Positions 2,449-24,552 of a DNA stretch of 64,000 nt are shown one piece after another. The position numbers were made by a program, and so were the translations under genes. Position 1 is the first letter of the stretch, and every line of letters starts with the position of its first letter. The notes beneath the pieces were generated by a model. It searched no databases. It saw nothing but the letters and a program-made list of their open reading frames with translations, and was not told the DNA's origin. Source of the DNA: Pseudomonadota bacterium (GTDB taxonomy: Bacteria; Pseudomonadota; Gammaproteobacteria; Acidiferrobacterales; UBA6901); the NCBI GenBank assembly GCA_027364845.1, contig DAHXOO010000002.1, positions 76,422 through 140,421 on the forward strand, given 5' to 3'.

Positions 2449-2577
2449 CGCAAACGCTCCGTAAGGAAACCGCTATGTCGGCTGGCGCGCCGCCTGCCGG
2501 TAGCGAAATTTCAGCAGCTTTGGCATGACAGCGCAATGGCGAAGTCGCCGGCGGATGCCGTACAATCCAGGCGAACC

Positions 2578-3516
2578 ATGAACGCCAAATCCCGAGTGCA
2601 ATCCGCGACCGTGCGCGAGCTGGTCCTGTGGGGCGAACAGCGGCTGCGCGAAGCCGGCATTGCATTCGGCCACGGCACCGACAACGCTCTCGACGAAGCG
2701 GCGTGGCTGGTGGGAACAACCGTTGGCGTTACGCCGGTCGATCTTGACAGCCAGCTGGACCGGCCTGTGAATACGTCGCAGCTAGCCGCAGTGCGGCAGA
2801 TCATAAAAAGGCGCATTGATACACGCAAGCCCGCCGCATATCTCCTGCGCGAAGCCTGGTTCGCGGGCCTACGGTTCTACATAGACGAACGAGTCATCGT
2901 GCCGCGCTCTCTGATCGGAGAATTTGTCCTGGATGAATTTCAGCCGTGGATCGACAAGCAGCGCGTGCGCCACGTACTCGATCTATGCACCGGCAGCGGC
3001 TGCATCGCCGTTGCAGTGGCGAGGATTTTTCAGCAAGCGCAGGTGGATGCGGCGGATATCTCAGCGGAGGCACTCGAGGTGGCGCGGATTAACGTCGCGG
3101 CTCATGAGCTGGAAACACGTGTGCGGCTGGTTCGATCGGACCTGTTCAGCGCGCTTGCCGGCGAGCATTACAACCTCATCGTGAGCAATCCGCCATATGT
3201 TGCGGCCGACGAGATGGCGGCGCTGCCGGCCGAGTATCACCACGAACCGAAACTGGCGCTCGCCTCGGGAATGGATGGCCTGGAGGCGGTTACGCGCATC
3301 CTTGCGCAGGCGCAGGATCACCTAGCGCCCGGGGGAATTCTTGTCGTAGAGGTCGGCAATAGCCGCGACGCACTGGAACAGCGATTCCCGCACGTGCCCT
3401 TCGTATGGCTATCCACGCGCAGCGGCGATGAAAGCGTTTTCCTTCTGGACTGCGCCGAACTTGCGCGCCAGCGCGCCACCTTGCAGGAAGCCTTCAATAT
3501 CCCCGACTGCAGGTAA
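2578..3516 (+). CDS. prmB: 50S ribosomal protein L3 glutamine N5-methyltransferase PrmB
   Basis: GHGTDNALDEAAWLV N-terminal block, SAM-binding LDLCTGSGCIA and catalytic NPPY (VSNPPYV). ATG at 2578 gives an E. coli-like length; the ORF track starts at 2536. Confidence 0.85.
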   Translation: MNAKSRVQSATVRELVLWGEQRLREAGIAFGHGTDNALDEAAWLVGTTVGVTPVDLDSQLDRPVNTSQLAAVRQIIKRRIDTRKPAAYLLREAWFAGLRFYIDERVIVPRSLIGEFVLDEFQPWIDKQRVRHVLDLCTGSGCIAVAVARIFQQAQVDAADISAEALEVARINVAAHELETRVRLVRSDLFSALAGEHYNLIVSNPPYVAADEMAALPAEYHHEPKLALASGMDGLEAVTRILAQAQDHLAPGGILVVEVGNSRDALEQRFPHVPFVWLSTRSGDESVFLLDCAELARQRATLQEAFNIPDCR

Positions 3517-3572: not shown

Positions 3573-5300
3573 CTAACGACACAGATCCTGGCGGCGATAC
3601 ATTTCCTCGATCTCCCTGGCAAAGCGCTCCTCGACCTTGCTCCGGCGCAGCTTGAGTGTCGGCGTAAGCAGATCATTCTCTACCGTCCAAGGTTCGGCGA
3701 TGCGCACGATATGACATATCCGCGCGTAACCCGGGAAAGCCCGCAACTGGATGTTGGCGCGCTGGCACAGGGCGCGCTCGTCATCGAGCCTGCTAACGAC
3801 CAGAAGACCAAGATGCGCGCGGCCTTCGCCCACCACCATCACCTGCTGGAAGACCGGATCGAGCATTATCGCCTGCTCAGCATCAGCCGGCGGGACTTTT
3901 TCTCCGTTGCTGAGCACGATGATCTCCTTGGCACGCCCGACAATGTAAATTCGCCCGCCCTCGATGCGTACCACATCACCGGTGTGCAACCAGCCTTCGG
4001 CGTCGATCATGGCGTCTGTCGCTACCGGGTTATTCCAGTAACCGAGCATCACTCCCGGGCCGCGCACCAACAGCTCGCCGTCGTCCAGAGTCCTGATCTC
4101 GACTCCGGTGAGCGGTCGCCCGACCGAGGCAGGATCGTTATCCCCGAGGCGGTTGCAGCTCACCACAGGTGAAAACTCGGTGAGTCCATATCCTTGCAAC
4201 AGGGGCAGCCCAAGCCCAAGAAAGGTGCGCGACAGCTGCGGTGCAAGCGCCGCGGCGCCGGACACGATCAGGCGCATGCGCCCGCCCAACCGCCGGCGCA
4301 GCTTGCGCGCAACAAGCGCATCGAGCAGAGGCCAAAGGAATCTGTCGCCCCACCGCGCCTGTCCGGCAAACCGCCTCCACCCGACATCGATCGCCTGTTC
4401 CAACAGGCGCCGGCGCCAGCACCCGAGCGGCAGGTTTTCGTACATGCGCGCATAGATGCGTTCGAATATGCGCGGCACGCACACCAGGATCGTTGGGCGT
4501 TGACTCAGCAGATCCTGCGAGAGCTCCGAGATGCTGCGCGCAAAAACGGTGCGGGCGCCGACGCACATGCACAGGTAATAACCCACGGTGCGCTCGAACA
4601 TGTGCGAAAGTGGCAGAAAAGACAGAAACAGATCATCGGCGTTCACGTCTGGCACCGCATCCAGACCGGCGCTGACGTTGCTCACGATATTGCGGTGGCT
4701 CAGCATCACACCCTTGGGGCGGCCGGTGGTGCCCGATGTGTACACCAGCGTCGCCAGATCCGCGGCACGTGCAGGACCGGCATCCAGGGCTTCACCTTGT
4801 GCCGGCAGCCATCCGGACACGGCCACTGCGATCGCGTCACCCACGGGCACGTCGTTGATGCAGATCACGCGCGCAAGCGCCGGAATCTGCCCGCGCAGCC
4901 CGCTCCAGAGCGACCCATCCTCGAGCAGGAGCAGCCGCACACCGGCGTCATTCATGCACCAGGCCATGTTGTCCGGCCTGTCGTTGTAGAACAACGGTAC
5001 CACGACCAGCCCGAGGCTGAGCGCCGCCTGATCAAAGAGAATCCATTCGATCCGGTTCCGCATACAAAGCGCCACACGATCCCCCGGCTTGAGACCCTCG
5101 TTGCGCAGCGCCGCGCGCCAGCATCCCGTCTCGCGTCCCGCTTCTGCCCAGTCGATGTCCTGCCATCGGCCGCGATGCACGTCCTGGGGGGCGCTGGGAT
5201 CTGCGTGAAACTGGCGGTAGGCCAGTTTGCTCGGCGTATTCTGGATACGGGCCAGGAACAACTGCGGCAGGGTTGTCTGTTCAGTAATCGGGACCCGCAT
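3573..5300 (-). CDS. Acyl-CoA synthetase / long-chain-fatty-acid--CoA ligase (FadD/FadK-like, AMP-forming)
   Basis: AMP-binding signature YTSGTTGRPKGVMLSHRN plus LLQGYGLTE and GWLHTGD. ATG at 5300 is preceded by GGAG; the track uses TTG at 5306. It starts 2 nt after the upstream gene's stop. Confidence 0.9.
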   Translation of the reverse strand: MRVPITEQTTLPQLFLARIQNTPSKLAYRQFHADPSAPQDVHRGRWQDIDWAEAGRETGCWRAALRNEGLKPGDRVALCMRNRIEWILFDQAALSLGLVVVPLFYNDRPDNMAWCMNDAGVRLLLLEDGSLWSGLRGQIPALARVICINDVPVGDAIAVAVSGWLPAQGEALDAGPARAADLATLVYTSGTTGRPKGVMLSHRNIVSNVSAGLDAVPDVNADDLFLSFLPLSHMFERTVGYYLCMCVGARTVFARSISELSQDLLSQRPTILVCVPRIFERIYARMYENLPLGCWRRRLLEQAIDVGWRRFAGQARWGDRFLWPLLDALVARKLRRRLGGRMRLIVSGAAALAPQLSRTFLGLGLPLLQGYGLTEFSPVVSCNRLGDNDPASVGRPLTGVEIRTLDDGELLVRGPGVMLGYWNNPVATDAMIDAEGWLHTGDVVRIEGGRIYIVGRAKEIIVLSNGEKVPPADAEQAIMLDPVFQQVMVVGEGRAHLGLLVVSRLDDERALCQRANIQLRAFPGYARICHIVRIAEPWTVENDLLTPTLKLRRSKVEERFAREIEEMYRRQDLCR

Positions 5301-5302
5301 GG

Positions 5303-7348
5303 TCAACTCCGCGGAACAGTATGATGTGTCAACAGATCCGACCTAGCCCATGCCTCATCGGGCTCGAAGCGCGGGCCATATTCCTGCGCCAACCGCCTGA
5401 GACTACTGGCAATGCCGACCTCCCCCAGGGCCTCGGCATAGCGCATGGGTCCGCCCAGATAGGGCGCAAACCCTGTCCCGAAGACCATTCCGACGTCAAC
5501 GGAATCAGGGTCATCGACCACGCCTTCACGAAGGCAGGCGGCCGCTTCGTTCAACATACGCAGGATCAGCCGCTCGATAACAGGTGTATCGGTATGCCCA
5601 CGGACCGCGCGGTGGCGAGGCCTGCCGGATCTGTCGAAGACATAGAAGCCGCGCCCCGACTTTTTTCCAAGATCACCGCGCTCGACGGCCTCACGCAGGC
5701 GATCCGGTACCGAAATGCCGAGTGGCCCGGAAAGCATTTCCGCCACTGACAGGCAGATATCCAGACCCACTGTGTCGGCCAGCAGCACCGGGCCCATGGG
5801 CATTCCAAAGCGCGTCGCCGCCTGATCGATCTGCTCGATCGGAATCCCTTCCTGCGCCAGGGTCATCGCCTCGATGAGATACGGCATCAGCACGCGATTA
5901 ACCAGGAATCCCGGGCTGCTCCGGACATCGAGAGGAAGGCGCTCGATTGCGACGGTAAAAGCCCGGGCACGCTCCAGAGCGGAGTCGCTGGTTTGCTTCC
6001 CGCGTACAATCTCGACGAGCTGCATTTGCGCCACCGGATTGAAGAAGTGCAGCCCGACGAGACGTGACGGATCTTTGAGCGCCTCACCCAGCACCTCCAG
6101 AGGGATGCTCGAGGTATTGGTTGCAAGCAGGGCACCCGGACGCACTATGCTTTCGATGGTCCGAAATAGCCCGCGTTTAACGTCCGCATTCTCGACTATG
6201 GCCTCGATGACAAGATCGGCCCGGCGCAGGCCGTTACCACCCGCGTCCGGCATCAATCGATCCATCGCATTTTGAATTGCTACCGGCTTTTTGAGTTTCT
6301 TTCTGTAGAATCCGTAGGCTTTCTTGACAGTGCGCGCGAGCGCCTCCGGCTGCTGGTCCTGCAGGCTCACACGGAAACCCTTGAACGCGGCCCAGATGGC
6401 TATATCCGCACCCATGGTACCGGCGCCGATTACGTGGAGGTGCGCGATGCCATGCGGGTTGCGGCGCCCGTTGCGCTTCAACTCCTCACCAAGCAGAAAG
6501 ATGCTTACCAGGTTGCGGCTGGTGCGCCCAACAAGCAGCTCTCCCAGCGATAGCGCTTCCTCCTCCTGCGAGGCAGCCCGACGCCACAGATCGAGCACCC
6601 GGTACGGGGCCGGATAATGGTCAGGGTTCGCCTTTTTATGCAGTTGCCGCTGCAGCAGGCGAAAAACCGGCTGGCGCAGGAATGGCCACGACGGTGCGCG
6701 CTTCCACCAGGTGGCGCGCCTGCGGTGCGGGTGGCGAGCAATGAACGCGTGCGCGGCATTCAACAGATGGCGCTCCGGCACGGTTTCGTCTACAAGCCCC
6801 AGCGCAAATGCCTGGCGCGCGCTCACCGTGCGACCGGTTAGCATGAGATCGAGCGCCGCTAGATCGCCGATCAGGGGCGGCAACCGCACGCTTCCGGCGA
6901 AACCTGGATGAATACCCAGCCGCACTTCGGGTAACCCCAGCCGCGTAGCCTCATCCTCGCGCGCAATTCGATAGGTGCAGGCCAGAGCCAGTTCCAGGCC
7001 CCCGCCCAGACAATTGCCGTGAATCAGCGCTACACTGGGAAACGGCAATCCTGCAAGCCGGTTGAATACGGTCTGGCCAGCGCGCGCGAGGGCAGCGGCT
7101 TGCGTCGAGTCGACGATCTTCTGGAACTCGTTAACATCCGCGCCCACGATGAAGCCGTTGACCTTCGCTGAACGAATGACCAGGCCCTGGAGTGGACGGC
7201 TTTCAATCTGCCCGAGGATGCGGTCGAATTCTTCCAACACCGTGGAAGACAACGCGTTTGCGCGCTGTCCGGCCACGTCGAGTGTCAGCACGATGGTTTC
7301 GTCGGCTTCCTCCATACGCCAGTTGACAACGTCGATGTCCACGCTCAT
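5303..7348 (-). CDS. Fatty-acid oxidation multifunctional enzyme alpha subunit (enoyl-CoA hydratase / 3-hydroxyacyl-CoA dehydrogenase, FadJ/FadB-like)
   Basis: N-terminal crotonase fold followed by the NAD-binding HVIGAGTMGADIAIWAA. Start MSVDIDVV at 7348 makes an ATGA overlap with the thiolase stop; the track start at 7405 is probably an over-extension. Confidence 0.9.
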   Translation of the reverse strand: MSVDIDVVNWRMEEADETIVLTLDVAGQRANALSSTVLEEFDRILGQIESRPLQGLVIRSAKVNGFIVGADVNEFQKIVDSTQAAALARAGQTVFNRLAGLPFPSVALIHGNCLGGGLELALACTYRIAREDEATRLGLPEVRLGIHPGFAGSVRLPPLIGDLAALDLMLTGRTVSARQAFALGLVDETVPERHLLNAAHAFIARHPHRRRATWWKRAPSWPFLRQPVFRLLQRQLHKKANPDHYPAPYRVLDLWRRAASQEEEALSLGELLVGRTSRNLVSIFLLGEELKRNGRRNPHGIAHLHVIGAGTMGADIAIWAAFKGFRVSLQDQQPEALARTVKKAYGFYRKKLKKPVAIQNAMDRLMPDAGGNGLRRADLVIEAIVENADVKRGLFRTIESIVRPGALLATNTSSIPLEVLGEALKDPSRLVGLHFFNPVAQMQLVEIVRGKQTSDSALERARAFTVAIERLPLDVRSSPGFLVNRVLMPYLIEAMTLAQEGIPIEQIDQAATRFGMPMGPVLLADTVGLDICLSVAEMLSGPLGISVPDRLREAVERGDLGKKSGRGFYVFDRSGRPRHRAVRGHTDTPVIERLILRMLNEAAACLREGVVDDPDSVDVGMVFGTGFAPYLGGPMRYAEALGEVGIASSLRRLAQEYGPRFEPDEAWARSDLLTHHTVPRS

Positions 7349-8643
7349 GCCGGTTCTCCTTCCACACGCACCAGCATCGCGCCACCCTGACCGCCGCCGA
7401 TGCAAAGGGTTGCGACACCAAGCCCTCCTCCGTGGCGGCGCAGCGAGCGCAGCAGATGTAAGACGATGCGTGCGCCGCTTGCCCCGACGGGATGGCCGAT
7501 CGCGACCGCACCGCCTTCGGTGTTCAGACGCGCCGGCTCCATGGGGCCGAGCGGGACGTCGAGATCGAGTTCGTCGCGGGCATATTCAGCGCTCGCCCAT
7601 GCTGCCTGGCAGGCAAGCACCTGTGCGGCAAATGCCTCGTTGAGTTCCATCTGCCGGATATCCTCCATGCTAAGCTCGAACCGGGCTAGCAATTTCGCCA
7701 CAGCATGCACCGGCCCGAGGCCCATCTGACTGGGATCGACACCAGCCCAATCTTCGCCGAGCAGCTCGCCCAGCACCGGCAGACTGTAGCGCTCCACGGC
7801 GGTTTCGCTCGCCAGTATTAGCATCGCCGCTCCGTCGGTCACCTGCGAGCTGTTGCCCGAGGTCACCACACCGTACTTCCGGTCGAACACTGGCCTGAGT
7901 TTGGCGAGCTGGTTCATGTCGGTATCCCTGCGCAAACCGCTGTCCTCCTGGTGGATGCGGCCGCGGGTATCGTATAGCGGCTCGATCTCATCGCGCATCT
8001 GCCCGGCGTCATAGGCTGCCGACAGGCGCTGATGACTGGCGAGCGCATAGGTATCCTGTTCAGCGCGCGTAATACCGAAGCGATGCGCAACAATCTCCGC
8101 GGTCTGGCCCATATTCAGCTTTACCAGCGGGTCGGTCAGTCCCAACAGCAACGTGTATACCGGCACCAGATGCGACAACCGGAAGGCGGCTATCGCGCGA
8201 AGGCGCGCAATCGGATTGCGGGCACGCAGTACTCCGGCAAGCCAGCCGGTCATGGCGGTATTCCACTGGATCGGCGCGCGGCTCATCGCTTCGGTGCCAC
8301 CAGCGAGAATTAGATGCGCGTGACCCTGGGCAATCCGCTCGCGCGCGCTTGCCAACGCCTGCAGCCCGGAAGCACAGTTGCGCTGGACCGTAAAGGCTGG
8401 GACGGCTTTACCGCAGCCGAGGCGCAGCCCGATGATGCGTGCAACATTCGCCTCGTCCGGCGCCGGAATCACACAGCCCACGATAACTTCGTCTATTTGC
8501 TCCGGAGCAAATGGCGCACGCGCCAGCAGCGGGCGGGCGGCGGCTACCGCCAGGTCAGCAGCACTGAACTCGTTTGGCTGGCCGCGCGCCTTGAGAAACG
8601 GCGTGCGTGCACCATCGACGACGTAAACCTTTGCATCTGACAT
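7345..8643 (-). CDS. 3-ketoacyl-CoA thiolase (acetyl-CoA C-acyltransferase, FadI-like with lid insertion)
   Basis: Active-site RNCASGLQAL and C-terminal CIGGGQGGAMLV. Strong SD (AGGAGG) upstream of ATG at 8643. Thiolase placed before the multifunctional enzyme matches fadIJ order. Confidence 0.9.
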   Translation of the reverse strand: MSDAKVYVVDGARTPFLKARGQPNEFSAADLAVAAARPLLARAPFAPEQIDEVIVGCVIPAPDEANVARIIGLRLGCGKAVPAFTVQRNCASGLQALASARERIAQGHAHLILAGGTEAMSRAPIQWNTAMTGWLAGVLRARNPIARLRAIAAFRLSHLVPVYTLLLGLTDPLVKLNMGQTAEIVAHRFGITRAEQDTYALASHQRLSAAYDAGQMRDEIEPLYDTRGRIHQEDSGLRRDTDMNQLAKLRPVFDRKYGVVTSGNSSQVTDGAAMLILASETAVERYSLPVLGELLGEDWAGVDPSQMGLGPVHAVAKLLARFELSMEDIRQMELNEAFAAQVLACQAAWASAEYARDELDLDVPLGPMEPARLNTEGGAVAIGHPVGASGARIVLHLLRSLRRHGGGLGVATLCIGGGQGGAMLVRVEGEPA

Positions 8644-8798
8644 TGCTGCCTCCTAATCGACTGCAGTGGCGGAAAGCCGTTGCACCACCCTGTCTGCCTC
8701 AATCCTACCCGGGAAACAGCCGGGGCCAGAAACCACGGAATGTGCGCGGCCCGGTGCTGCGCTCCGGCAGTGCGCCAGCGGGCATCCATGCCTGTCAT

Positions 8799-11700
8799 CT
8801 AGACGCTCTGTACAGCAGCATCGGCCGTCAAGGATCGCACCAGTGCCGGCACCCACTCCAAGAGGTCGCCGACACAGCAGATTACATGCGGTCCCGGATT
8901 CTGACGCGACCAACTGAAGATCGGTGCATCCGGATCGCGATTGATGGCAACCACTACGGCACCCCGATCGATCCAACCCATATGCTGCGGTGCCCCGGAA
9001 ACGCCCAGTGCCAACAGCAGCGTCGGCGCCACCGGGACGCCAGTCTGGCCGATCTGGCGGTCGGTCGGCAGAAGCTTGAGCTCCTGCGTTACCTTGCGTG
9101 TTGCCCCGAGCTCCACGGCCGTACCGCTAAGACGTTCGAGCGCCACACATAGCGGCGGAACCAGCTCTTTGTATGTCGACTGGTTTGCAATGCCGAGTCC
9201 CACGTCCACAATGATCTTCGCCGCCGCCAGGCCACCAATCGCAGCGGCGGAATGCGCCCGAGCGCGCACCAGGGCCGAACTTCGCAGGCGCGCAACCGGC
9301 AGCATCGTGACAAGGATCGGCGTGGATGCCGGGGCGGCCAGTTCCACTTTTGGACCGGCACGGTTTATGATCAGCAGCGCGGCGCGCGGCAGCGGGTAAT
9401 CCGCCTCGTAACCGTCATGGGAACAGGTCACCGCATCGGGCGTTACCCTGATGACTTCGTCAAACAGCGGTATTCCAAGGCGTGCTGCCAGCACCGCCCC
9501 GAGTGCACGGTGTTCCGCGCCCAACACGATGCGTTGGGGCACACCGATATGTGCCGCCAGCACGTCAGCCAAAGCCCCCCACAGCACTTCGCCCTGTACC
9601 GGCAGCTGCCATAGCCCGGCAAATCCCGGCTGGGCCAGCACAAACGAACCCGGCGATGGCGTCTGACCGACCCGATGCCAAGTGAGTACGCCAAATCCCG
9701 CACCGAGTACAACGAGTGCCCGCAGTGCCGGTGCCCGGCTGGCGCCGGTCAGCATGTCCGCCGAAGTCAGCCACAGATTAGGGCCGGCGAGTGGTACCTG
9801 TGCGGGCCGCATCGCCGCCGGCTTATCGGCGATAGCAGCCGTACCGAACCGGCCTTTGATCCAGGTGGCCAGCTCGTCGGCGTCGTCGAAGCGCCGCGGC
9901 AAATCGCCGGCCGGCAGTGGGGACAGTGGTCGTACTGCTGCTGCCAACAGCTGCGCGCTGATTTCGCTGCCTTTTAGTTCTGTGCGCAGCACCGCCAGCC
10001 AATCGCGCACACCGTAGTGCCCGGTGCGACCGTTGGGCTTCAAATCCCAGACAAATGCGGTACGACGTTGGTCGGCGATGAACCACCGCTTCCAGGATGC
10101 ATCCTCCATCCACAGGCCGCGCGCGACAGCACCTACGGCAGTCGCGCCCTCAACGAGATCGATGCCGAGCAGCCGCCCCATGTTGGCAACAAAGCCGTGA
10201 TCGCGCACGCTGGATGCGGCACATCCGAAGGCCCAGCGCCGCACCTGCGGCCAGGCGTGCATAATAGCCTGCGCGGCACCGGCCATGTCGGCGGCACCGG
10301 CCGGCTGAGCGAGGTGCAGAACCTCTGCGCCTGCCGCCTGCAGGCAACGCAACGGGTCGTCGATACCGTGCGGCGCGATTGCGGCGACTTTCACCTGCAG
10401 CGCCGGAAACCGGTCCGACCAGCACAGCAGGCGATCCAAGACCGCAAGATCCGCCGGATTCCACCCGACCCAATCGAGTCCACGCGCACCGGATTCGAAG
10501 CGGCTGCGCAGCACGACAGCCCACTCTCCACCCAGCCCGCCCACTGCCACCGGGCCGTCATCCGCTGGCGCCGGCGCGGCCAGTGCCACGCGCGCTAGTG
10601 TCAGGGCAGCCTCACTGGGATCCTCCTCACCGCGCTCGGCCCGCTCGAAATCCGCGCACACCATTCGGGCCACATCCTGCACATGCTGCGTGATGCTGAC
10701 TTCGCTCGCACGCAGGCGCGCGATATTCTCGCGGTCCACAGGGTCACCGTGAAAATCAAGCAGGCGGATGCGCTCGTGCAGCGCCGACCAGCTGTAAAGC
10801 TCGGCCGCCCAGTCGACCACGGGGAACCAGCGCGCCTGAAAGTCCGGATTCTGCCAAACCGCGGAACCGAGTCGCGCGACACGCACCGCAACGAAGTCGC
10901 GGAATGTCTGCAGCGCGGCATCGAGCTGCGCATTGTCCACAACCGGAGTGGCCTGCTCGCGCAGTAGGTTCGGCAGATCCTTGAGCACGAGAAAGCGCTG
11001 GACCTCGTTTGTCCCTTCGTAGATGTTCAGGATGCGTATATCGCGCCGCCATTTTTCCAGCATCACCTCGCGTGCGGCTGCCATCGGTCCATAGAGCTTC
11101 TCAAGCCAGCCGAGAATACGGTGCGCACCTTCGGAAGCGAGGTACTTTGAAAACGCCGCCTCGATGCGAAAGTCTCCACGCTGCAGGTTGGACCGGTCCA
11201 TCAGGCCCATCAGACGCGCGGCCAACGTTTGCAGCCGGTCACACTCTGCCTGGGCCGCAGCGTGCAGTATCGGATCCTTCTGCCACACCGGCAAAAACTC
11301 GTGCAGCACGCGCTCAGCAAGAGTGGCACAGCTCATGACGAGACCACCACGCCCCACGCTCAGCGTCTCGAGTGCGTTCACCTGCCCATGGCCCGCGAAG
11401 CCGATCACCTGATCGGCGCCCACGCGCACCCGGTCCAGAGTCAATTCGTTGGTCGGCGAGGCGCGTTGGCCGAGCTTGTTCTCGTTCGGCCCGATGCGCA
11501 GGCCTTCGGAACGGCGCTCGAGCATGAAACCGGTTTCGCCGAGCGCGGTCTGCGCGTACAAGCAGTAACGATCCGCGACCGATCCGTTGGTGATCCACAT
11601 CTTGTTTCCAGACAGTTCCCAGTAGCGATAGAAGGTCTTGCCATTCGTGACGACAACGGTGCCTATGTCGTCATAGGGATAGGCGTGCTCGCCGACGCAA

Positions 11701-14700
11701 ATCCGGCGGCAGCCGCTGTTGCGTGCCATGTCCCAGTCACTGTCATCGAGGCTGGCTAAACTGCCGTCCGGAAGACGAAAAAACGCCTGGCGCGATTCGA
11801 ACACCAGTCGCGCCGCATCCAGCAGTACACGCGGCTTCTCGGTGCCGGCAGCAATGAAGCGGTACAGCCCTTGTGCGTCAACCTGCGCTTCCACCTCACG
11901 CAGTACAGCGCGCGTCTGAATGCCTCCAGTGTCAGAACCCGCCGCCGGCTCCGTCAGCGCAAAAGCGCTGATCTGTCCACAGGCGAGAAACTGCAGGAAG
12001 CGCCCGTGTGCATGCTCGCGGGCGTCGAGTTCCTGCTGTTCATCCGTAAGCCGCGCACGCACTGCCGGCAACCCGTCCCGGCACTGCCTCAGGCCCGCGC
12101 CGAATGCATTCAGGTCGCGCGCCTTGGCGGCTTCCACCGTCTGCTGCACAAGTGCGAGAAAATCGCGTATCAGGTACTTGAGCGTCGAGCCCGGGAAGAG
12201 GAACATGCTCTGTATCTGCGCGCCCAAGCGCTCCAGTGCCCGACGCAACGGCTTGGGCTCCGGACGCTCGACCATGGTGATGAGTTGGTCCAGGCTATCC
12301 ACCAATGCCCGCCATCCCGGCATGTCGGCCAAGAACGCGCCGATCTCCCGGCGCAACCGCGGCAGATCCTTTTCGCGGCCCAGCAGCACCGGCATAGTGC
12401 CGATGCTGGTGCTGGCCATGACCAGCAGTCCAGTGGCCGTATCCTTTTCGCCCATGCACAGGTTAGTGAGCACCGAGTACTGGGCCTTGCTCCAGCCCTT
12501 TCCCCCGAGTTCCTTGGGCACGATGGTCGCAAAGGCATTGAAGTCGCGCAGCAGCTGGACGTCGCGTTGCGGCATTCCGTGCAGGGAATCTATGTAGCGG
12601 CCATAAGGTTCATCCCTGCGCGGGCTGCGAAAGCCGCGGCGCAACAACCGCAAAACTTCGGCGCGCGTGCGGCGCAGCAGTGGATCGCGCCGATAGTGCT
12701 CGGAGACCAGCAACTCATCGGGCGCGAGCAAGCGGCCGTTCAGAAAGCTACCGCTCTGGTAGATAAATTTCTCGTGCGCCTGCCACGCGAGCGAGTAGCG
12801 CGGTCGCAGCGGCTTGTGCCGCTGCGGATCGGCGTTCGATGGGTGCAATGCACGGATGCGTCGGCGCCCGTTCGCGAACTGCAACAGGCTTTCGGCTACA
12901 ACGTAGTCGATCCCCGGCAGCGTCTGCGCCAGCAATCGTGCTGCAAAATCCGGGTCTTCATTTCCTAGCTCGCGTGATCCCGGCCACTGGCTGAACAGGA
13001 TCGCGTCGCGGTAGCGCGGCGCGAGAATATCTTCCTCCGAATATGCCATGCCCCCGAAGATCTGGCCGGCGAGCCAAGGCACAGCATCCATCCACGGACC
13101 CATGCACTCGCGCACAAACGACAATACCTGGTCCGGCTCACGCTGACACCAGCGACGCGCCAGACCAAGCAGCGTGTACGCATACTCGATGCCCGCCAGC
13201 ATCTGCTTGACTACTCCGAACTTGGCGATGCTATCGCGCCCCTCGATGTCCTGCAGTTCGCCGCGGAACTGAACCCGGGTAGCGGCATATTCGAGCGCGC
13301 GACGGCGTAGTACCGCTGCCTGGCCGAGGGCCAGTGCAACACTCAGCTCGGCCATCGCAGCCGTGACCACAAAGTTGCGAAGATCCGCCTCGACACGCCT
13401 GCGTACCGGCTGGGCAGCATCGGCACCAGCACCGTGCGCAATGATCTCGCCAGCGGATTTCACGCCACCGTGCGGGTCGATAAGCCGCTCGGCGGCAGCC
13501 GACAACCAGTTTGAATTGCCATCCTCCTCGCGCCACAAGGGTGCAGCCAGGGCATCCTCGATCGTGCGCCCGGCGTATTCTTCGGCCAGGTAGTGGCCGG
13601 CGGCGATCCACGCCAGTGCACTCGACCAAGACGCCAACCATTCCACCGCAGTGCCACGGTGCGTGCGTGCAGCGACTATCCAGTCGCAAAGGGCACGTCG
13701 GTCTGATTGTTCCCAGGGCGCGCGCACCAGCGATTTGAGCCTTTCCGGCAAGAAATGAACCTTGAGCTTCTCCCACATGAATTCGTACCGCCGCAGCCGA
13801 TGCGCATGGGGATCACACACATTGCGCTCGTCGATTGGCAACGCCTGCGCCTGCTCCAGCAGGGCATGCACTTCGGTTTCCATCGAGCCGTAAGCATTGC
13901 GCTGCAGCCACGAGCTGACGCGCGCGCGGGTTGATTGCGTCAATTCGCCAGGGGAAATCTCTTTGAGCAGCTTCGTCCAGGCGCGCGGCCACTCCCAGGC
14001 CACCATCGCCGGCCGCGCGCGCAGAGACCGATACAGGCTTTGCCACGAACCGCGCTCAACATCGCTCAAGTGCAGTGGCTCTATCGGGGCAAGTTCCAAC
14101 GCGGAAGTCACGGAAGAGTCCGGACCGCTTCGGGCATTTCCCGGTATCCGATAGACAAACCGATGGCCACTGTTCCGATTCCAGTCCACCCCAGGCACTG
14201 TCACGCGGCAGGATTCGCACTTGATACAGTTTTCGTGCTGGCTCGCGACCCCACCCAGCTGGCTGACCAGGCTGTAGACTTCCGCTGGACAGACGTTGCG
14301 CAGCTGTTGCGCCGAGGCGCCGAGGTGCAGGGGTACAGTCACGTGTCGTGGATCAGGTTGGTGCCGCACAAGCGGGGCGATCCAGGTTGTAGGCGAAGCA
14401 GCGCTGCGGTGCGCCCTGACCCAGTCAAGCTGACTACGCGTGCTGTCCTCATAGCGATGGTAAGGCCGCAGGAGCAATGCGCGCAGCGGTACACGGCCGG
14501 TCTTGTATGCCGCGAGATCACTGAGCAGCGATGCGCCGCCGGATAACGCGCTCAGGCCCAGACCGGCGATGCGAGGAAGCACCAACGGCAAGCGCGCCAT
14601 GCTACGCCAGACCATCGCCACGCGATCGGCGAATGCCGGCAGACGCCGGCCGTAGAAATGGCCGATGGCCTTGGCAGCCAGCGCCAACACGGGATCGTCC

Positions 14701-16103
14701 TGGACCACAATTTCCGCCGGCGCATTGCCGGCATGTGCCACCAGGAAACGCACCTGCAGTGGCACCGCCGTCCGTGCTGCATGCAGACGCGGGCCAAATC
14801 CGCGGGCCAGGCGCAAAGCCTGTGCCGCATCGCGGCGCAGATGGGCGAGTTGAACGCCAAGAGCACGCCGCCGCTGGGCGCAGCGAGCGCCGGGCGGCAG
14901 GTAGTCGGCATCGATCATCTGACCAAGCATGGCGGGCAGGTGGTCAAACAGAGCCGGACCACCGTGGATTGCGCTGGGCCAACGCCGTATAAGCGCGGCA
15001 TTGCGAAAATCGTCGGTATTGCGCAATGCCTCGGCATATTCATGCTCCAGATTTTCACGCGTATAGTCAGAACCATTCCGGCGTATGCGCAATACTGCAT
15101 CGGCAAAGGTCAACGCACTGGTGATGGCAGGCGCAATGAAATTCGGGTAGGGCACCTCTTGCCCGATACCAAGACTGCCGCCGCCAACAGCCAGCCCATC
15201 GCGCACCCACTCCGGCGTTTCGTCGACCCCACCGGAACGAATTACTTTGGCACCATAGGCAATCTGCTGCGCGCCCTCGAGGTAGGATGCAATCACCGGC
15301 AAGTTGCGCACGCGTTCGAAAAGATGCGGGTGATCGGCGATGCTTGCCTGTGCCAGGCGCTCAAGTGGAAGCACCAGGCCAAGCGAGAGCGAGTCGTGGT
15401 TCGTGTACAAGAAGGCGGTCATGTTGAGCCGCGTCGGGCGACCGGCGAGCTGACCGTTGCGTAGCAGCCACTCCTGCGCCACTCCCTCGTCCGATTGCAG
15501 CTGAAATCGCTTTTCGATTTCCGGCGGCGGCAGGCGGAACAGCGCCTTGATGCCTTGGGCATAATGCGGGAGCTTTTTGCGCTCAATGCCTTCGCGCGTC
15601 AGCAAGCCGGCGGCGTCACCTTCGGCGAGAAACACCACGGGAGCCTCCACTGGCCCGCGGTCGGTATTGACACCAACCACACGGTCGCCGTGATAGCGCA
15701 GACCCGTTACCGTGGTGGCAGTGATCAGCGTAGCGCCGAAATCGATGGCGCGACTCGCGAGCCAGCGATCGAGCTTGGGGCGCAGAACCGTCCATGCTTC
15801 GCCGTAATCGTTGCCGGCATGGGCCCGAGCCTCGAAACCGGCAGCATTGATGCCGTCATGCAGAAACAGGCTGCGTGCGACGATACGCCGCTCCTTCGGC
15901 GCCTGCCGCCACAGTTCCTGCCCCAGGACATCTTCGCGCAGCAGGCCCTCAGCATGATAGACGCAACCGGACCAGTTCTCAGCACCCGCATACTCTGCGC
16001 CCTCGAGCACCATCACTGATACTCCGGCGCGGACCAGCCGCAGCGCCGCCGCAATCCCAGCGGGTCCAGCGCCTACGATAAGGACTTCGGGCGAGGAGGG
16101 CAT
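8799..16103 (-). CDS. Giant 2434-aa fusion protein: FixC-like ETF-quinone oxidoreductase + FixX-like ferredoxin + degenerate ACAD-like unit + acyl-CoA dehydrogenase + ETF-beta-like + ETF-alpha-like
   Basis: One uninterrupted 7305-nt ORF with family motifs in one frame along its whole length. They are VLIVGAGPAG (aa 7-16), CPAEVY...ENCIKCESC (aa 605-632) and QIFGGMAYSEED...FSQWPGS (aa 1014-1043). They continue with ALTEPAAGSDTGG (aa 1382-1394), GNKMWITNG, IYEGTNEVQR (aa 1694-1703), LALGVSGAPQHMGW, VAINRDPDAPIF and CCVGDLLEWVPAL (aa 2365-2421). Confidence 0.9.
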   Translation of the reverse strand: MPSSPEVLIVGAGPAGIAAALRLVRAGVSVMVLEGAEYAGAENWSGCVYHAEGLLREDVLGQELWRQAPKERRIVARSLFLHDGINAAGFEARAHAGNDYGEAWTVLRPKLDRWLASRAIDFGATLITATTVTGLRYHGDRVVGVNTDRGPVEAPVVFLAEGDAAGLLTREGIERKKLPHYAQGIKALFRLPPPEIEKRFQLQSDEGVAQEWLLRNGQLAGRPTRLNMTAFLYTNHDSLSLGLVLPLERLAQASIADHPHLFERVRNLPVIASYLEGAQQIAYGAKVIRSGGVDETPEWVRDGLAVGGGSLGIGQEVPYPNFIAPAITSALTFADAVLRIRRNGSDYTRENLEHEYAEALRNTDDFRNAALIRRWPSAIHGGPALFDHLPAMLGQMIDADYLPPGARCAQRRRALGVQLAHLRRDAAQALRLARGFGPRLHAARTAVPLQVRFLVAHAGNAPAEIVVQDDPVLALAAKAIGHFYGRRLPAFADRVAMVWRSMARLPLVLPRIAGLGLSALSGGASLLSDLAAYKTGRVPLRALLLRPYHRYEDSTRSQLDWVRAHRSAASPTTWIAPLVRHQPDPRHVTVPLHLGASAQQLRNVCPAEVYSLVSQLGGVASQHENCIKCESCRVTVPGVDWNRNSGHRFVYRIPGNARSGPDSSVTSALELAPIEPLHLSDVERGSWQSLYRSLRARPAMVAWEWPRAWTKLLKEISPGELTQSTRARVSSWLQRNAYGSMETEVHALLEQAQALPIDERNVCDPHAHRLRRYEFMWEKLKVHFLPERLKSLVRAPWEQSDRRALCDWIVAARTHRGTAVEWLASWSSALAWIAAGHYLAEEYAGRTIEDALAAPLWREEDGNSNWLSAAAERLIDPHGGVKSAGEIIAHGAGADAAQPVRRRVEADLRNFVVTAAMAELSVALALGQAAVLRRRALEYAATRVQFRGELQDIEGRDSIAKFGVVKQMLAGIEYAYTLLGLARRWCQREPDQVLSFVRECMGPWMDAVPWLAGQIFGGMAYSEEDILAPRYRDAILFSQWPGSRELGNEDPDFAARLLAQTLPGIDYVVAESLLQFANGRRRIRALHPSNADPQRHKPLRPRYSLAWQAHEKFIYQSGSFLNGRLLAPDELLVSEHYRRDPLLRRTRAEVLRLLRRGFRSPRRDEPYGRYIDSLHGMPQRDVQLLRDFNAFATIVPKELGGKGWSKAQYSVLTNLCMGEKDTATGLLVMASTSIGTMPVLLGREKDLPRLRREIGAFLADMPGWRALVDSLDQLITMVERPEPKPLRRALERLGAQIQSMFLFPGSTLKYLIRDFLALVQQTVEAAKARDLNAFGAGLRQCRDGLPAVRARLTDEQQELDAREHAHGRFLQFLACGQISAFALTEPAAGSDTGGIQTRAVLREVEAQVDAQGLYRFIAAGTEKPRVLLDAARLVFESRQAFFRLPDGSLASLDDSDWDMARNSGCRRICVGEHAYPYDDIGTVVVTNGKTFYRYWELSGNKMWITNGSVADRYCLYAQTALGETGFMLERRSEGLRIGPNENKLGQRASPTNELTLDRVRVGADQVIGFAGHGQVNALETLSVGRGGLVMSCATLAERVLHEFLPVWQKDPILHAAAQAECDRLQTLAARLMGLMDRSNLQRGDFRIEAAFSKYLASEGAHRILGWLEKLYGPMAAAREVMLEKWRRDIRILNIYEGTNEVQRFLVLKDLPNLLREQATPVVDNAQLDAALQTFRDFVAVRVARLGSAVWQNPDFQARWFPVVDWAAELYSWSALHERIRLLDFHGDPVDRENIARLRASEVSITQHVQDVARMVCADFERAERGEEDPSEAALTLARVALAAPAPADDGPVAVGGLGGEWAVVLRSRFESGARGLDWVGWNPADLAVLDRLLCWSDRFPALQVKVAAIAPHGIDDPLRCLQAAGAEVLHLAQPAGAADMAGAAQAIMHAWPQVRRWAFGCAASSVRDHGFVANMGRLLGIDLVEGATAVGAVARGLWMEDASWKRWFIADQRRTAFVWDLKPNGRTGHYGVRDWLAVLRTELKGSEISAQLLAAAVRPLSPLPAGDLPRRFDDADELATWIKGRFGTAAIADKPAAMRPAQVPLAGPNLWLTSADMLTGASRAPALRALVVLGAGFGVLTWHRVGQTPSPGSFVLAQPGFAGLWQLPVQGEVLWGALADVLAAHIGVPQRIVLGAEHRALGAVLAARLGIPLFDEVIRVTPDAVTCSHDGYEADYPLPRAALLIINRAGPKVELAAPASTPILVTMLPVARLRSSALVRARAHSAAAIGGLAAAKIIVDVGLGIANQSTYKELVPPLCVALERLSGTAVELGATRKVTQELKLLPTDRQIGQTGVPVAPTLLLALGVSGAPQHMGWIDRGAVVVAINRDPDAPIFSWSRQNPGPHVICCVGDLLEWVPALVRSLTADAAVQSV
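8829..9731 (-). other. Domain of giant ORF: ETF alpha (FixB/YdiR)-like module including the FAD-binding C-terminal domain (aa ~2125-2425)
   Basis: IIVDVGLG...ELGATRKV...RQIGQTGVPVAPTLLLALGVSGAPQHMGW...VVVAINRDPDAPIF...VGDLLEWVPAL matches the conserved ETF-alpha C-terminal FAD-binding region. Confidence 0.85.
9924..10532 (-). other. Domain of giant ORF: ETF beta (FixA/YdiQ)-like module (aa ~1858-2060)
   Basis: WAVVLRS...WNPADLAVLDRLLCW...VKVAAIAPHGIDDPLRCLQAAGAEVLHL follows the ETF-beta pattern (beta strand, N-x-x-D-x-x-A-[LV]-[ED], then G-x-x-x-x-x-x-L-R-x-x-x-A-x-G-A-[DE]). The assignment is weaker than for the alpha module. Confidence 0.55.
10974..12611 (-). other. Domain of giant ORF: complete acyl-CoA dehydrogenase (N, beta and C domains, with insertions; aa ~1165-1710)
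   Basis: ACAD signature 1 ALTEPAAGSDTGG, GNKMWITNGSVADRY, LGQRASPTNELTLDRVRV and the C-terminal IYEGTNEVQR, which retains the catalytic Glu. Confidence 0.85.
12984..13391 (-). other. Domain of giant ORF: degenerate acyl-CoA dehydrogenase C-terminal helical domain lacking the catalytic Glu (aa ~905-1040)
   Basis: LEYAATRVQFRGEL and QIFGGMAYSEEDILAPRYRDAILFSQWPGS align to the ACAD C-terminal pattern (Y-A-x-x-R-x-x-F-G ... Q-x-x-G-G-x-G-[YF] ... I-Y-E-G-T). The YEGT position reads WPGS here. Confidence 0.6.
14139..14351 (-). other. Domain of giant ORF: FixX/YdiT-like ferredoxin (aa ~585-655)
   Basis: CPAEVY followed by the C-x2-C-x2-C cluster ENCIKCESC, as in FixX-type 4Fe-4S ferredoxin-like proteins. 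Confidence 0.7.
14910..16088 (-). other. Domain of giant ORF: FixC/YdiS-like FAD-dependent ETF:quinone oxidoreductase (aa ~6-398)
   Basis: N-terminal Rossmann GxGxxG (VGAGPAGIAAA). Length and sequence run match FixC-type proteins (DRWLASRA..GATL, FLAEGDAAGLL, LAVGGGSLG). Confidence 0.8.
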
Positions 16104-16419
16104 AATTTTTATTGTTCCGTATATGGTTAGTTATAGCAAAGGTCGGCGTGGCGGGTGTTGGCACATTGCTGGCATCGGATTGACTGCCCGGGGTGGGCGC
16201 CGCCAGGGGGCGTTTTTTGGAGTATGAAGCGGAGCGATTCGCATCTGGCCGCGTGCAACATCGGCGGGTTACGGTGACTTGGCTGATACACTGAGAGGAG
16301 GAATCGCCGGCGGAGCGGGTGCCGCACGCTTCATTCCGAACCTGAACAACGCGACTTGTCGCGCATCCTGGTCGTGGCCCGCATACGAAGCGCCCGGTGC
16401 CGGCTTCGTGGCCAGCATG

Positions 16420-16446
16420 GAAAAAGCGGTGCCTGATTGCTCAGGC
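16420..16446 (-). terminator. Candidate rho-independent terminator after the tlpA-like gene
   Basis: The minus strand reads GCCTGA-GCAA-TCAGGC (6-bp stem), then ACCGCTTTTTCC (T5). Confidence 0.4.
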
Positions 16447-16586
16447 AATTGACCCCGCCAAGGAAGATTTGTTGCACAGACAGGGCGAGACCCGGGTCTG
16501 CGGCGACGGCGAGCGCGTCCCAAGTCTCTCAGACTCATCGGCACGGAGCACGGGCCAGTTTGGCCACGCCCGCATACCGCGACAAA

Positions 16587-17141
16587 TCAGCCCGGCGCTG
16601 GCGCCCTATGCCGGTGTGAAACCGTCGGGGCCGAGGGAGCAGGACGCGGCAGCAGCTGCATCAGGCGCGCCTGCAGCTTCGGGGCCGACCAGTCCCTGCC
16701 GCCGACCAGGACATCGACCAAGCGTCCGTGCGGGTCGATTACGTAACTTGTTGGCAGCCCGACCATCCCCCACTTCCTGCTGACCGCGGCATTCTGGTCA
16801 AGCAGGATCGGGTATGTGATCTTCATTTGTGCGGCGAAGGGCTGCACTATGCTCCATCCCTCGCCGACTTCCACCCCGAGAATCACGAACCCTCTGTCCT
16901 TAAACTTTTCGTAGGTGCGCTCCATAGAAGGAATCTCAATGAGGCATGGCGGGCACCATGTCGCCCAAAAATTCACGATGACGAGCTTGCCGCGATAATT
17001 TGTAAGATGCCGCACTTTGCCATTGAGATCCTTTAGGGAGAAATTCGGAGCGACGCGTGCTGCCGTAGATACGGCCGGCACGGCATGGCCGGCGGGCACA
17101 GCGGCGAGCCACACGATTGCGGCGGCAGCGAAGCGCGTCAT
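16587..17141 (-). CDS. Periplasmic thiol:disulfide oxidoreductase, TlpA/ResA/redoxin family
   Basis: WATWCPPC thioredoxin motif. Signal peptide MTRFAAAAIVWLAAVPAGHA from ATG at 17141; the track start at 17198 is likely over-extended. Confidence 0.85.
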   Translation of the reverse strand: MTRFAAAAIVWLAAVPAGHAVPAVSTAARVAPNFSLKDLNGKVRHLTNYRGKLVIVNFWATWCPPCLIEIPSMERTYEKFKDRGFVILGVEVGEGWSIVQPFAAQMKITYPILLDQNAAVSRKWGMVGLPTSYVIDPHGRLVDVLVGGRDWSAPKLQARLMQLLPRPAPSAPTVSHRHRAPAPG

Positions 17142-17146
17142 CACGG

Positions 17147-17767
17147 TTACTTCTCCATCGCTGAACGAGTGGCAGAGCATAACACGTTGCGCACCCATGC
17201 CTGTTCTGGTACGCCGTTTTCGGTCCAGCGGACCTGCAGATCGAAGCGCTGGCCGGGACCCAGGTTGGCGGTAACCATTCCCTGCAGCCAGTCGCCGCCA
17301 CCAAGCCGCTCCACGGTCGGAAGCATGGCGTAGCGGAAAGCGATCTGCGCCGAGGGTGCGACCCGCTCCTTACCCCATTGTCGGTGCCAGTCTGCTTCGA
17401 GGCGAAGCTGGTTCTTGTGGCCGTCGGCAACCACCCGCCAATCACCGAGATTGATCCGGATCGTCCTGGCTGCGGACAGGTTCTTCACAACGACCGCCAT
17501 TACGCAGGCATCAGCGATCTGCCGTGAAACGCTGGGTGTGAAGCCGCGCCCCTGGAAAAACGCCTCGGTCAGATCGATAGGGCGCTGGACAAGCTCGACG
17601 GCCAGTCCGTCCTGCCGGGCTACTGCCCAGTGCGGCAATGCGGTTTGGGACAGAGGACTGGAGGCGTTCGCCGTTGCCGCATAGCCCGCAACAAAAGCGA
17701 CTACCAAGAGCGTCAACACCATCCTGCAGCGGCACGAACCGCGTATGTCGCGAAAGATGCCGACCAT
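17147..17767 (-). CDS. Hypothetical secreted protein (~206 aa), unknown family
   Basis: The C-terminal 206 codons of track ORF 17147-18253 start at ATG 17767 and carry a signal-like MVLTLLVVAFVAGYAATANA. The upstream 160 codons are Arg/Pro-rich junk. I recognise no family motif. Confidence 0.6.
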   Translation of the reverse strand: MVGIFRDIRGSCRCRMVLTLLVVAFVAGYAATANASSPLSQTALPHWAVARQDGLAVELVQRPIDLTEAFFQGRGFTPSVSRQIADACVMAVVVKNLSAARTIRINLGDWRVVADGHKNQLRLEADWHRQWGKERVAPSAQIAFRYAMLPTVERLGGGDWLQGMVTANLGPGQRFDLQVRWTENGVPEQAWVRNVLCSATRSAMEK

Positions 17768-18879: not shown

Positions 18880-18896
18880 GATGATCCTGCAGAAAG

Positions 18897-18924: not shown

Positions 18925-18983
18925 GCAGATCGGAAGCAAATCTTCCAAATCCGGATGTTTTGTTCGTCGCCCACGGGGGTATT

Positions 18984-24514: not shown

Positions 24515-24552
24515 ATATAGAGTGCAATTTCGCGACCGGTCTTTATCGATCG

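Follow-up and report, generated by a model that had tools for sequence, protein, structure and literature searches.

A putative single-chain acyl-CoA:quinone oxidoreductase encoded in a four-gene beta-oxidation locus of the Acidiferrobacterales

The window considered here is a stretch of 64,000 nucleotides (nt) from a gammaproteobacterium of the order Acidiferrobacterales (lineage UBA6901; assembly GCA_027364845.1, contig DAHXOO010000002.1, positions 76,422 to 140,421), and the subject of this work is a group of four minus-strand genes at its positions 3573-16103. The first of them encodes a fusion protein of 2434 amino acids (aa), in which relatives of a FixC/FixX-type quinone oxidoreductase, of acyl-CoA dehydrogenases (ACADs), and of both subunits of an electron transfer flavoprotein (ETF; EtfB and EtfA) follow one another in a single chain. 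The other three encode a thiolase, a multifunctional enzyme (MFE), and an acyl-CoA synthetase.

The four-gene locus

The genes, in their order of transcription, are the following.

8799-16103, minus strand: gene 1, fusion of 2434 aa starting at an ATG, putative single-chain acyl-CoA:quinone oxidoreductase (open reading frame (ORF), translation, homologs, domain matches)
7345-8643, minus strand: gene 2, thiolase, 432 aa (Pfam Thiolase_N and Thiolase_C)
5303-7348, minus strand: gene 3, MFE of the FadJ/FadB family (enoyl-CoA hydratase/3-hydroxyacyl-CoA dehydrogenase), 681 aa (Pfam ECH_1, 3HCDH_N and 3HCDH)
3573-5300, minus strand: gene 4, acyl-CoA synthetase (AMP-forming ligase), 575 aa (Pfam AMP-binding and AMP-binding_C_3)

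A first-pass annotation of this DNA had described four co-oriented genes in the order fusion, thiolase, MFE, and ligase, and the ORFs, together with the Pfam and NCBIfam matches, bear this out. The locus thus holds, in one orientation, a full functional set of ligase, ACAD, hydratase, 3-hydroxyacyl-CoA dehydrogenase, and thiolase. The same annotation had listed a 155-nt gap with an AGGAGG, an ATGA overlap at 7345-7348, and a 2-nt spacer at 5301-5302, all of which are found on reading the sequence. The gap between genes 1 and 2 (8644-8798) ends in gatTAGGAGGcagcaATG (TAGGAGG-N5-ATG). The mechanical ORF list started genes 3 and 4 at TTG codons (5303-7405 and 3573-5306), and their starts were re-set by reading the junctions. 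The MFE gene is placed at 5303-7348 because an ATGA joins the thiolase stop (TGA, 7345-7347) to the next start (ATG, 7348-7346), and the resulting 681 aa equal the length of the ortholog in the related locus L087. The MFE stop codon (5303-5305) is followed, after the spacer, by the ligase ATG at 5300-5298.

The order fusion-thiolase-MFE-ligase is kept in every Acidiferrobacterales-type relative examined, down to a fusion identity of 41%, and the junction between fusion and thiolase is short or overlapping in these relatives:

L087, fusion 73% identical: 126-nt gap
L088, fusion 55% identical: 55-nt gap
L081 and L082, fusion 43% identical: 4-nt overlap
L089, fusion 41% identical: 11-nt overlap

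In the window, the corresponding gap of 155 nt contains neither a terminator (terminator scan), nor an inverted repeat, nor significant RNA structure (fold z=+1.5). Co-transcription of the four genes is therefore supported indirectly, by the relatives' junctions and by the lack of a terminator or structure in this gap. A more distant locus from an uncultured bacterium (L002, fusion 34% identical, 6513-18130) carries a thiolase and an MFE directly upstream of the fusion and on the same strand, and this different order, thiolase-MFE-fusion, reads as an independent association of the fusion with beta-oxidation.

The three smaller proteins belong to familiar families, in most cases below the curated thresholds for particular members. 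The thiolase passes model NF006030 (acetyl-CoA acetyltransferase; 650.1 bits against a cut-off of 593) and scores below the cut-offs of the FadI models (NF006516, 346.7 against 560; TIGR02446, 283.4 against 711.55), with 265 bits for FadA; by these scores it appears closer to the FadI type than to the FadA type. The MFE lies below the cut-offs for both FadJ (NF008363, 541.2 against 869; TIGR02440, 474 against 968) and FadB (463 against 870). For the ligase, the best NCBIfam matches are FadD11 and long-chain ligases, below cut-off, and the FadK model is not among the best 25; the FadK protein itself aligns with it at 26% identity over 457 aa.

A search with the gene 1 protein against the 64-kb window (tblastn, E<=1e-3) returned only gene 1 itself. 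For homologs of the fusion's own domains, this confirms the earlier statement that no separate etfAB, etf-QO, or fadE is present in the window.

Architecture of the fusion protein

The protein encoded by gene 1 has at least 280 homologs of 2280-2740 aa in the databases searched. Fifty-nine of these are 41-100% identical to it, and 49 of the 59 span 99-100% of the query, which rules out an assembly or frameshift artefact behind gene 1. The identical NCBI protein P0001 (2404 aa) begins 30 codons downstream, omitting aa 1-30 (nt 16014-16103). The ATG at 16103 is taken as the right start because the later one would remove the GxGxxG motif that is invariant in the family, and the P0001 annotation is, on that evidence, a start-codon miscall. 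Conservation figures given below refer to an alignment of 30 family members, and structures refer to two AlphaFold models, one of aa 641-1840 (pLDDT, the per-residue confidence score, 87.8; pTM, the predicted template-modelling score, 0.86) and one of aa 1841-2434 (pLDDT 91.5, pTM 0.88). The following domains, all on the minus strand, were distinguished, with flavin adenine dinucleotide abbreviated as FAD, ETF:quinone oxidoreductase as ETF-QO, and the very-long-chain type of acyl-CoA dehydrogenase as VLCAD.

14889-16103, minus strand: aa 1-405, FixC/YdiS-type FAD-dependent ETF-QO domain with GxGxxG at aa 11-16 (profile against the PDB, NCBIfam)
14310-14888, minus strand: aa 406-598, linker specific to the family that joins FixC to the Fe-S motif (without a match in any library searched)
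14139-14309, minus strand: aa 599-655, FixX/ETF-QO-type single [4Fe-4S] motif, VC605PAEVY...ENC626IKC629ESC632 (conservation, Pfam in distant members)
12849-14063, minus strand: aa ~681-1085, module 1, non-catalytic ACAD-like (profile against the PDB, AlphaFold secondary structure, motifs)
10965-12749, minus strand: aa ~1119-1713, module 2, catalytic VLCAD-type ACAD with N-terminal, beta, and C-terminal domains (Pfam ACAD_M and ACAD_C, VLCAD alignment, Foldseek)
10584-10931, minus strand: aa ~1725-1840, helices that extend the ACAD at its C-terminus, a feature shared with VLCAD and ACAD9 (AlphaFold helices, model residues 1085-1199)
9807-10550, minus strand: aa ~1852-2099, EtfB-type domain (ETF domain III) with a degenerate nucleotide loop (profile against the PDB, Foldseek, PF01012 in distant members)
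8802-9806, minus strand: aa ~2100-2434, EtfA, domain I followed by the FAD-binding domain II at aa ~2277-2434 (profile, Pfam, Foldseek)

These identifications agree with the first-pass annotation insofar as it had seen a fused redox part composed of ACAD, EtfBA, and FixCX homologs; the second, non-catalytic ACAD module and the degenerate state of EtfB were absent from that reading.

At the N-terminus, aa 1-405 match FixC of Thermotoga maritima (7koe_C) with E=2e-26 as a single sequence, improving to 2e-53 when the family profile is used, while pig ETF-QO is more distant (4e-8). The NCBIfam model for FixC (NF007542) matches aa 7-393 with 157 bits against a cut-off of 610, a shortfall that is expected in a fusion, and Escherichia coli YdiS is 30% identical over 404 aa. 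Residues G11, G13, and G16 are invariant in the family alignment. In the linker that follows, a helix at aa ~502-530 (nt 14514-14600) is hydrophobic and is a candidate monotopic or re-entrant membrane anchor. In 14 of 15 distant members, no other 19-mer of the whole protein is as hydrophobic as the one at this position (Kyte-Doolittle 1.95-2.7), and the helix is weaker and Gly/Ala-rich in the clade of the window (Kyte-Doolittle 1.3-1.8). A transmembrane nature of the gene 1 product was considered as well, and was rejected for the window protein on the basis of transmembrane prediction. The Fe-S motif consists of a single set of four cysteines (C605, C626, C629, and C632), which is invariant in 30/30 members and predicted to bind the cluster. 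The Pfam family PF05187 (Fer4_ETF_QO) was matched in distant members, and weak matches of this region to FixX of 7koe_D (aa 603-648) and to YdiT (31% over 36 aa, aa 599-634) were also obtained.

The central part of the protein holds two ACAD modules of very different appearance. Module 2 is the recognisable one: three segments of it align to VLCAD (2uxw), the catalytic Glu1696 of its IYEGTNE falling opposite the catalytic Glu in VLCAD's IFEGTND, and its best Foldseek matches are VLCAD, ACAD9, and long bacterial ACADs (template-modelling score to the target, TMt, 0.65-0.72; 0.65-0.79 over the ACAD fold matches taken together), while the top-ranking NCBIfam model is the Bacillus-type FadE. The motifs TEPxAGSD, KMWITNG, GQRxSPTNE, and IYEGTNE are invariant in 30/30. 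The C-terminal helical extension fits the same affinity, as the profile matches of 2z1q and 3owa run past the ACAD core and the best fold matches carry such an extension. Two further stretches of module 2 are family-specific insertions: a long-helix bundle in the N-terminal domain (aa 1237-1374, nt ~11982-12395) and a beta-rich insertion of ~90 aa in the middle domain (aa 1400-1490, nt ~11634-11906). They could serve the docking of ETF or FixC, or could shape a substrate tunnel.

The ACAD nature of module 1 required a profile built from a sub-alignment, which matched the ACAD C-terminal domain in the PDB (butyryl-CoA dehydrogenase, 1buc_A 250-362, E=4e-7); a direct hhalign comparison of module 1 with module 2 gave nothing past the terminal YRD stretch. 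In the AlphaFold model it shows a helical, small beta, helical pattern, and a fuller stretch resembling the beta domain is present in longer relatives. Among 1.84 billion representatives, searched exhaustively, just 75 clusters contain it. Long matches to it fall almost entirely in proteins of 2000-2900 aa, at the same relative position, and none was seen in the length class of ordinary ACADs; as judged by this search, module 1 is family-specific.

In homodimeric ACADs, the Arg of an RxxFG motif and the residues of a QxxGG motif cross the dimer interface and contact the partner's FAD, as in the structures of medium-chain acyl-CoA dehydrogenase (MCAD). The usual arrangement of such homodimers or homotetramers, with each subunit supplying both motifs to its partner, is absent here. 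Module 2 has neither RxxFG nor QxxGG, and the 'RTQFGEKIHNFG' of VLCAD, which would correspond to the former, is inserted with respect to the family profile. In module 1, R943-x-Q945-F946 and Q1014-x-F-G-G1018...Y-R-D are retained in 30/30 members, and the module ends without the catalytic YEG, and hence without the catalytic Glu. Because the cis and trans motifs have been lost in a complementary manner, modules 1 and 2 suggest an intramolecular heterodimer with one FAD and a single active site.

The ETF is not a free heterodimer and is embedded at aa ~1852-2434, EtfB first. The EtfB profile matches CarD (6fah_B) and EtfB of Acidaminococcus fermentans (4kpu_B) with E~1e-13, and Foldseek retrieves EtfB chains with E~1e-7. 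The loop that holds AMP in canonical ETFs and the second FAD in bifurcating ones (GRQAIDGDTAQVG in 4kpu_B; G(K/R)QxIDxDxxQxG) is unrecognisable or deleted in 30/30 members, and this region is the least conserved of the whole protein, with two invariant columns. For EtfA, the family profile covers residues 13-332 of human ETF-alpha, PF00766 matches aa 2292-2375, and Foldseek matches to EtfA chains reach E values down to 7e-17, the best superposition being FixB of 7koe (template-modelling score 0.68). YdiR of E. coli is 30% identical over 246 aa, and the residues around the electron-transferring FAD (ET-FAD), namely R2336, QIGQTG, and SGAPQH, are invariant in the family alignment.

Proposed function and alternatives

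Taken together, the domain content and the operon make it probable that gene 1 encodes a single-polypeptide acyl-CoA:quinone oxidoreductase acting within a four-gene beta-oxidation operon. With somewhat less assurance, the balance also tips towards the family being a distinct enzyme class in which the path from ACAD to ETF to ETF-QO is hard-wired (three FAD and one [4Fe-4S]), with a one-active-site pseudo-heterodimeric ACAD and a cofactor-less EtfB scaffold, and which takes over the work of a diffusible ETF in several phyla. The fixed 1:1:1 ratio of the redox partners follows from the fusion itself, so that the redox part is stoichiometrically locked, as had been proposed for the pathway in the first-pass annotation.

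In the proposed mechanism, the ligase would activate a fatty acid to its acyl-CoA, which would be oxidised to enoyl-CoA by the FAD of module 2, in a site completed in trans by module 1. Electrons would then pass one at a time from the ACAD FAD to the ET-FAD carried by domain II of EtfA, at the extreme C-terminus, which would act as a mobile domain; to our knowledge, domain II is mobile in all known ETFs. From there, they would reach the single [4Fe-4S] of the FixX/ETF-QO-type motif, the FAD of the FixC domain and, finally, the membrane quinone, with the hydrophobic helix of the FixC-FixX linker providing access to the membrane. This contact with membrane and quinone is a prediction. The EtfB domain would be kept as a scaffold after the loss of its AMP/second-FAD site, with no bifurcation and no use of NADH, and the predicted cofactors would amount to three FAD and one [4Fe-4S], AMP and a site for NADH both being absent. 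The MFE of the FadJ/FadB type would hydrate and then oxidise the enoyl-CoA and the thiolase would cleave the product, such that the four genes would cover activation, all four reactions of the cycle, and the electron sink. The oxidative direction is favoured because a ligase is part of the operon and because the reduction of enoyl-CoA by ubiquinol is unfavourable. The midpoint potential of enoyl-CoA is about -10 mV and that of ubiquinol about +100 mV, and such a reduction would need menaquinol.

Several points weigh against this proposal. The N-terminal 640 aa lie outside both AlphaFold models. Prediction gives no transmembrane helix for the gene 1 product, and the hydrophobic helix is weak in its clade (Kyte-Doolittle 1.3). 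The trans-acting role of the FAD residues in the two ACAD modules is assigned by analogy with MCAD structures. The fusion gene is solitary in three of the eight loci with DNA context (L085 from Verrucomicrobiae, L090 from Leptospirillia, and L083, a 3-Mb contig that encodes P0116), and in the Nitrospirota locus L001 no thiolase, MFE, or ligase was detected within 10 kb by tblastn. Moreover, the closest relatives belong to sulfur- and iron-oxidising lineages generally thought to be autotrophs, where a fatty-acid catabolic operon is not obviously expected.

Some of these observations would suit another reading, in which the acyl-CoA:quinone chemistry is the same and the substrate is not an exogenous straight-chain fatty acid, but stems from the turnover of membrane lipids or storage polymers made by the cell itself, or is an acyl-CoA that is branched or modified in some other way. 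The solitary fusion genes in Verrucomicrobiae, Leptospirillia, and the P0116 genome, the lithotroph-type lineages of the nearest hosts, the two large family-specific insertions of the ACAD, and a TesA-like GDSL lipase gene that is syntenic a few genes away all lean in that direction. The partners in the operon are, however, generic beta-oxidation enzymes, the ligase has long-chain-type and the ACAD VLCAD-type affinities, and no gene for branched or ring substrates is found in the operon. Such a restriction of substrate is considered unlikely, although it fares best among the alternatives.

Slightly less probable still is the interpretation offered in the first-pass annotation, namely an anaerobic or low-oxygen pathway equivalent to FadI/FadJ/FadK plus YdiO/YdiQRST of E. 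coli, or one running in reverse through enoyl-CoA reduction. The parallel holds for content and gene order. The parts list equals that of the ydiO-ydiP-ydiQRST-fadK cluster, with homology detectable for five of the six proteins; the thiolase does precede the MFE as in fadIJ, and both enzymes score higher with FadI and FadJ than with FadA and FadB; and the quinone-reductase part is of the FixC/FixX type rather than the mitochondrial type. Orthology, on the other hand, is not supported. The identities amount to only 23-31%, the scores fall below the curated FadI and FadJ cut-offs, YdiQ has no BLAST match, and the ACAD is of the VLCAD/Bacillus-FadE type rather than the YdiO/CaiA type (23% to YdiO). 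As for the proposed low-oxygen or reverse role, nothing in the sequence points to it: no oxygen- or nitrate-responsive regulator or anaerobic marker adjoins the operon, and the ligase and the quinone-reductase module favour oxidation. A ligase in the operon points, in turn, to the catabolism of free fatty acids, and enoyl-CoA reduction driven by ubiquinol is energetically unfavourable, as noted above.

Finally, electron bifurcation of the FixABCX or Bcd-EtfAB type, with NADH feeding the EtfB FAD and electrons leaving to quinone or enoyl-CoA and to ferredoxin or flavodoxin, is very improbable: the best EtfB matches do belong to bifurcating complexes (CarD and A. fermentans EtfB), and the best FixC and EtfA structural matches to the bifurcating EtfABCX of T. 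maritima, but the NADH-dependent reaction is argued against because the EtfB nucleotide loop has been lost in all 30 aligned members, the four cysteines provide for one cluster only, and no ferredoxin or flavodoxin gene is adjacent in the window or in the relatives' loci examined.

Related systems, distribution, and surroundings

Compared with the canonical chain of ACAD, EtfAB, and ETF-QO, the fusion has the cofactor motifs of all three functions and the same predicted electron path. It differs in being one polypeptide of 2434 aa without a diffusible ETF, in its pseudo-heterodimeric ACAD (instead of a homodimer or homotetramer), in the absence of the EtfB AMP site, and in the linker of ~200 aa with a hydrophobic helix between FixC and the Fe-S motif. 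The closest relatives of its FixC/FixX part and of its EtfA are found in the FixABCX/EtfABCX systems (7koe of T. maritima; YdiQRST and FixABCX of E. coli). These, however, consist of four separate subunits and bifurcate from NADH where they have been characterised, whereas the fusion is ~30% identical to them, has a built-in ACAD and a degenerate EtfB nucleotide site, and holds one Cys4 motif.

Covalent fusions covering part of this chain have precedents. An enzyme from Fusobacterium nucleatum joins an ACAD with EtfA domain II and a rubredoxin (Bystrom & Wolthers 2024, Biochemistry 63:2352, cited in PMC12042025 and PMC12630350) and is likewise a natural covalent fusion of an ACAD with the FAD-carrying ETF domain. 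EtfB, domain I of EtfA, and a quinone reductase are reported to be missing from it, and its electrons reach O2 via a flavodiiron protein. The fusion of the window, unlike this one, carries the whole of ETF together with a quinone reductase, and its chain is 3.4 times longer than the ACAD-EtfA-rubredoxin fusion. A protein of this shorter kind was also found in a Fusobacteriaceae metagenome-assembled genome (MAG; L030, 9320-12787), where 716 aa comprising the N, M, and C domains of an ACAD, ETF_alpha, and rubredoxin are followed by a flavodiiron protein; several other loci from Firmicutes (L054, L062) look similar. SaETF is a stand-alone single-chain EtfB-EtfA fusion with two FAD that bifurcates (PMC12042025). 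It shares the order EtfB-then-EtfA with the window protein, in which, by contrast, EtfBA is embedded in a larger enzyme and the EtfB site is degenerate.

The division of labour between the two ACAD modules has a parallel as well. FadE26-27 and FadE28-29/ChsE from Mycobacterium tuberculosis are reportedly alpha2beta2 complexes of diverged ACAD paralogs, with one FAD and active site per heterodimer. The logic is the same as in the fusion, but these pairs are separate polypeptides that act on steroid side chains, while in the window protein the paralogs are fused and, in its clade, the beta domain of the non-catalytic module is much reduced. For module 2, VLCAD, ACAD9, and the Bacillus-type FadE are the best matches in sequence and fold, including the C-terminal helical extension; it differs from them in its low identity (17-18% in the structural alignment), its two large insertions, and the loss of RxxFG and QxxGG.

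No description of a complete ACAD-ETF-quinone reductase fusion was found in the full-text literature searched, only the partial precedents, although the coverage of that search was incomplete and does not prove absence. The joining of all components from end to end, the ACAD pseudo-heterodimer with its one active site, and the EtfB devoid of a cofactor appear to be undescribed, every module being familiar in itself, and the chemistry is not new. Electron transfer from ACAD to ETF and ETF-QO proceeds through transient complexes that are hard to trap, and its defects cause multiple acyl-CoA dehydrogenase deficiency in humans. A single chain with fixed partners would be a ready-made object for cryo-electron microscopy and kinetics of the full path, the movement of EtfA's flavin domain between donor and acceptor included. 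The family also suggests that a tethered ETF can forgo its AMP/second-flavin site and that an ACAD dimer is reducible to one active site, and the compact cassette of ligase, fusion, MFE, and thiolase could serve engineering.

Named members of the family come from MAGs of Acidiferrobacterales, Acidiferrobacter, Gammaproteobacteria, Leptospirillia, Verrucomicrobiae, and Betaproteobacteria. A scan of contigs with the family alignment, which keyed on generic ACAD peptides (IYEGTNE, FALTEPxAGS) and yielded mostly ordinary ACADs, added a full-length relative in Nitrospirota (L001); only L001 and L002 among its results are full-length relatives, and it provides no taxonomic census. Database labels of the members are generic ('FAD-binding protein', 'acyl-CoA dehydrogenase family protein', and, in JGI, 'ETF-quinone oxidoreductase'). 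Since members carry only the first two of these labels at present, ETF and ETF-QO may be scored as missing when pathways are reconstructed from MAGs of Acidiferrobacterales, Nitrospirota, Leptospirillia, and Verrucomicrobiota.

The flanks of the operon contain two further features.

16104-16141, minus strand: AT-rich block of 38 nt, cTTTGCTATAACTAACCATATACGGAACAATAAAAATT, directly upstream of the gene 1 ATG (sequence, alignment of upstream regions)
16430-16447, minus strand: terminator-like hairpin that follows the AhpC/TSA-type gene upstream and bounds the transcription unit on its 5' side (terminator scan)

The AT-rich block is nearly identical in L087, while the remaining intergenic region has diverged, and it may act as promoter or operator and as leader of the operon. 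No Shine-Dalgarno sequence precedes the gene 1 ATG within the block, a sigma-70 scan upstream of the operon gave no promoter (its single match falls inside gene 1), and no inverted repeats or operator-like palindromes were found near the gene 1 start. The downstream boundary of the operon is set by a convergent gene for a PrmC-like methyltransferase.

On that downstream side lie a GDSL/TesA-like lipase gene (510-1157, plus strand), a gene for an NADH:flavin oxidoreductase of the Old Yellow Enzyme family with a possible dienoyl-CoA reductase-like function (1381-2448, minus strand), and the PrmC-like methyltransferase gene (2536-3516, plus strand); the lipase and methyltransferase genes are syntenic in L087 and L088. 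Upstream, positions 16587-20845 encode the AhpC/TSA-type peroxiredoxin, an ORF without a Pfam match (17147-18253), an ArsR-HTH-rhodanese fusion (18205-18906), a protein of the fatty-acid hydroxylase family (18915-19835), and a VTT-domain/rhodanese fusion (19649-20845), a set that is syntenic in L087. Further on, genes for a multihaem cytochrome-like protein (c554/c7 matches), a pyridine-nucleotide-disulphide oxidoreductase, and a radical-SAM protein with DUF3641 stand in a row on the plus strand (21765-25515), the latter two adjoining in L087 too. The rest of the window is ordinary chromosome, with genes for PolA, UvrD, ferrochelatase, and c-di-GMP proteins. The ferrochelatase ORF (47456-48805) has ~128 residues ahead of the Pfam domain, probably because the mechanical ORF call began too early, at a GTG, and not because the protein is really extended.

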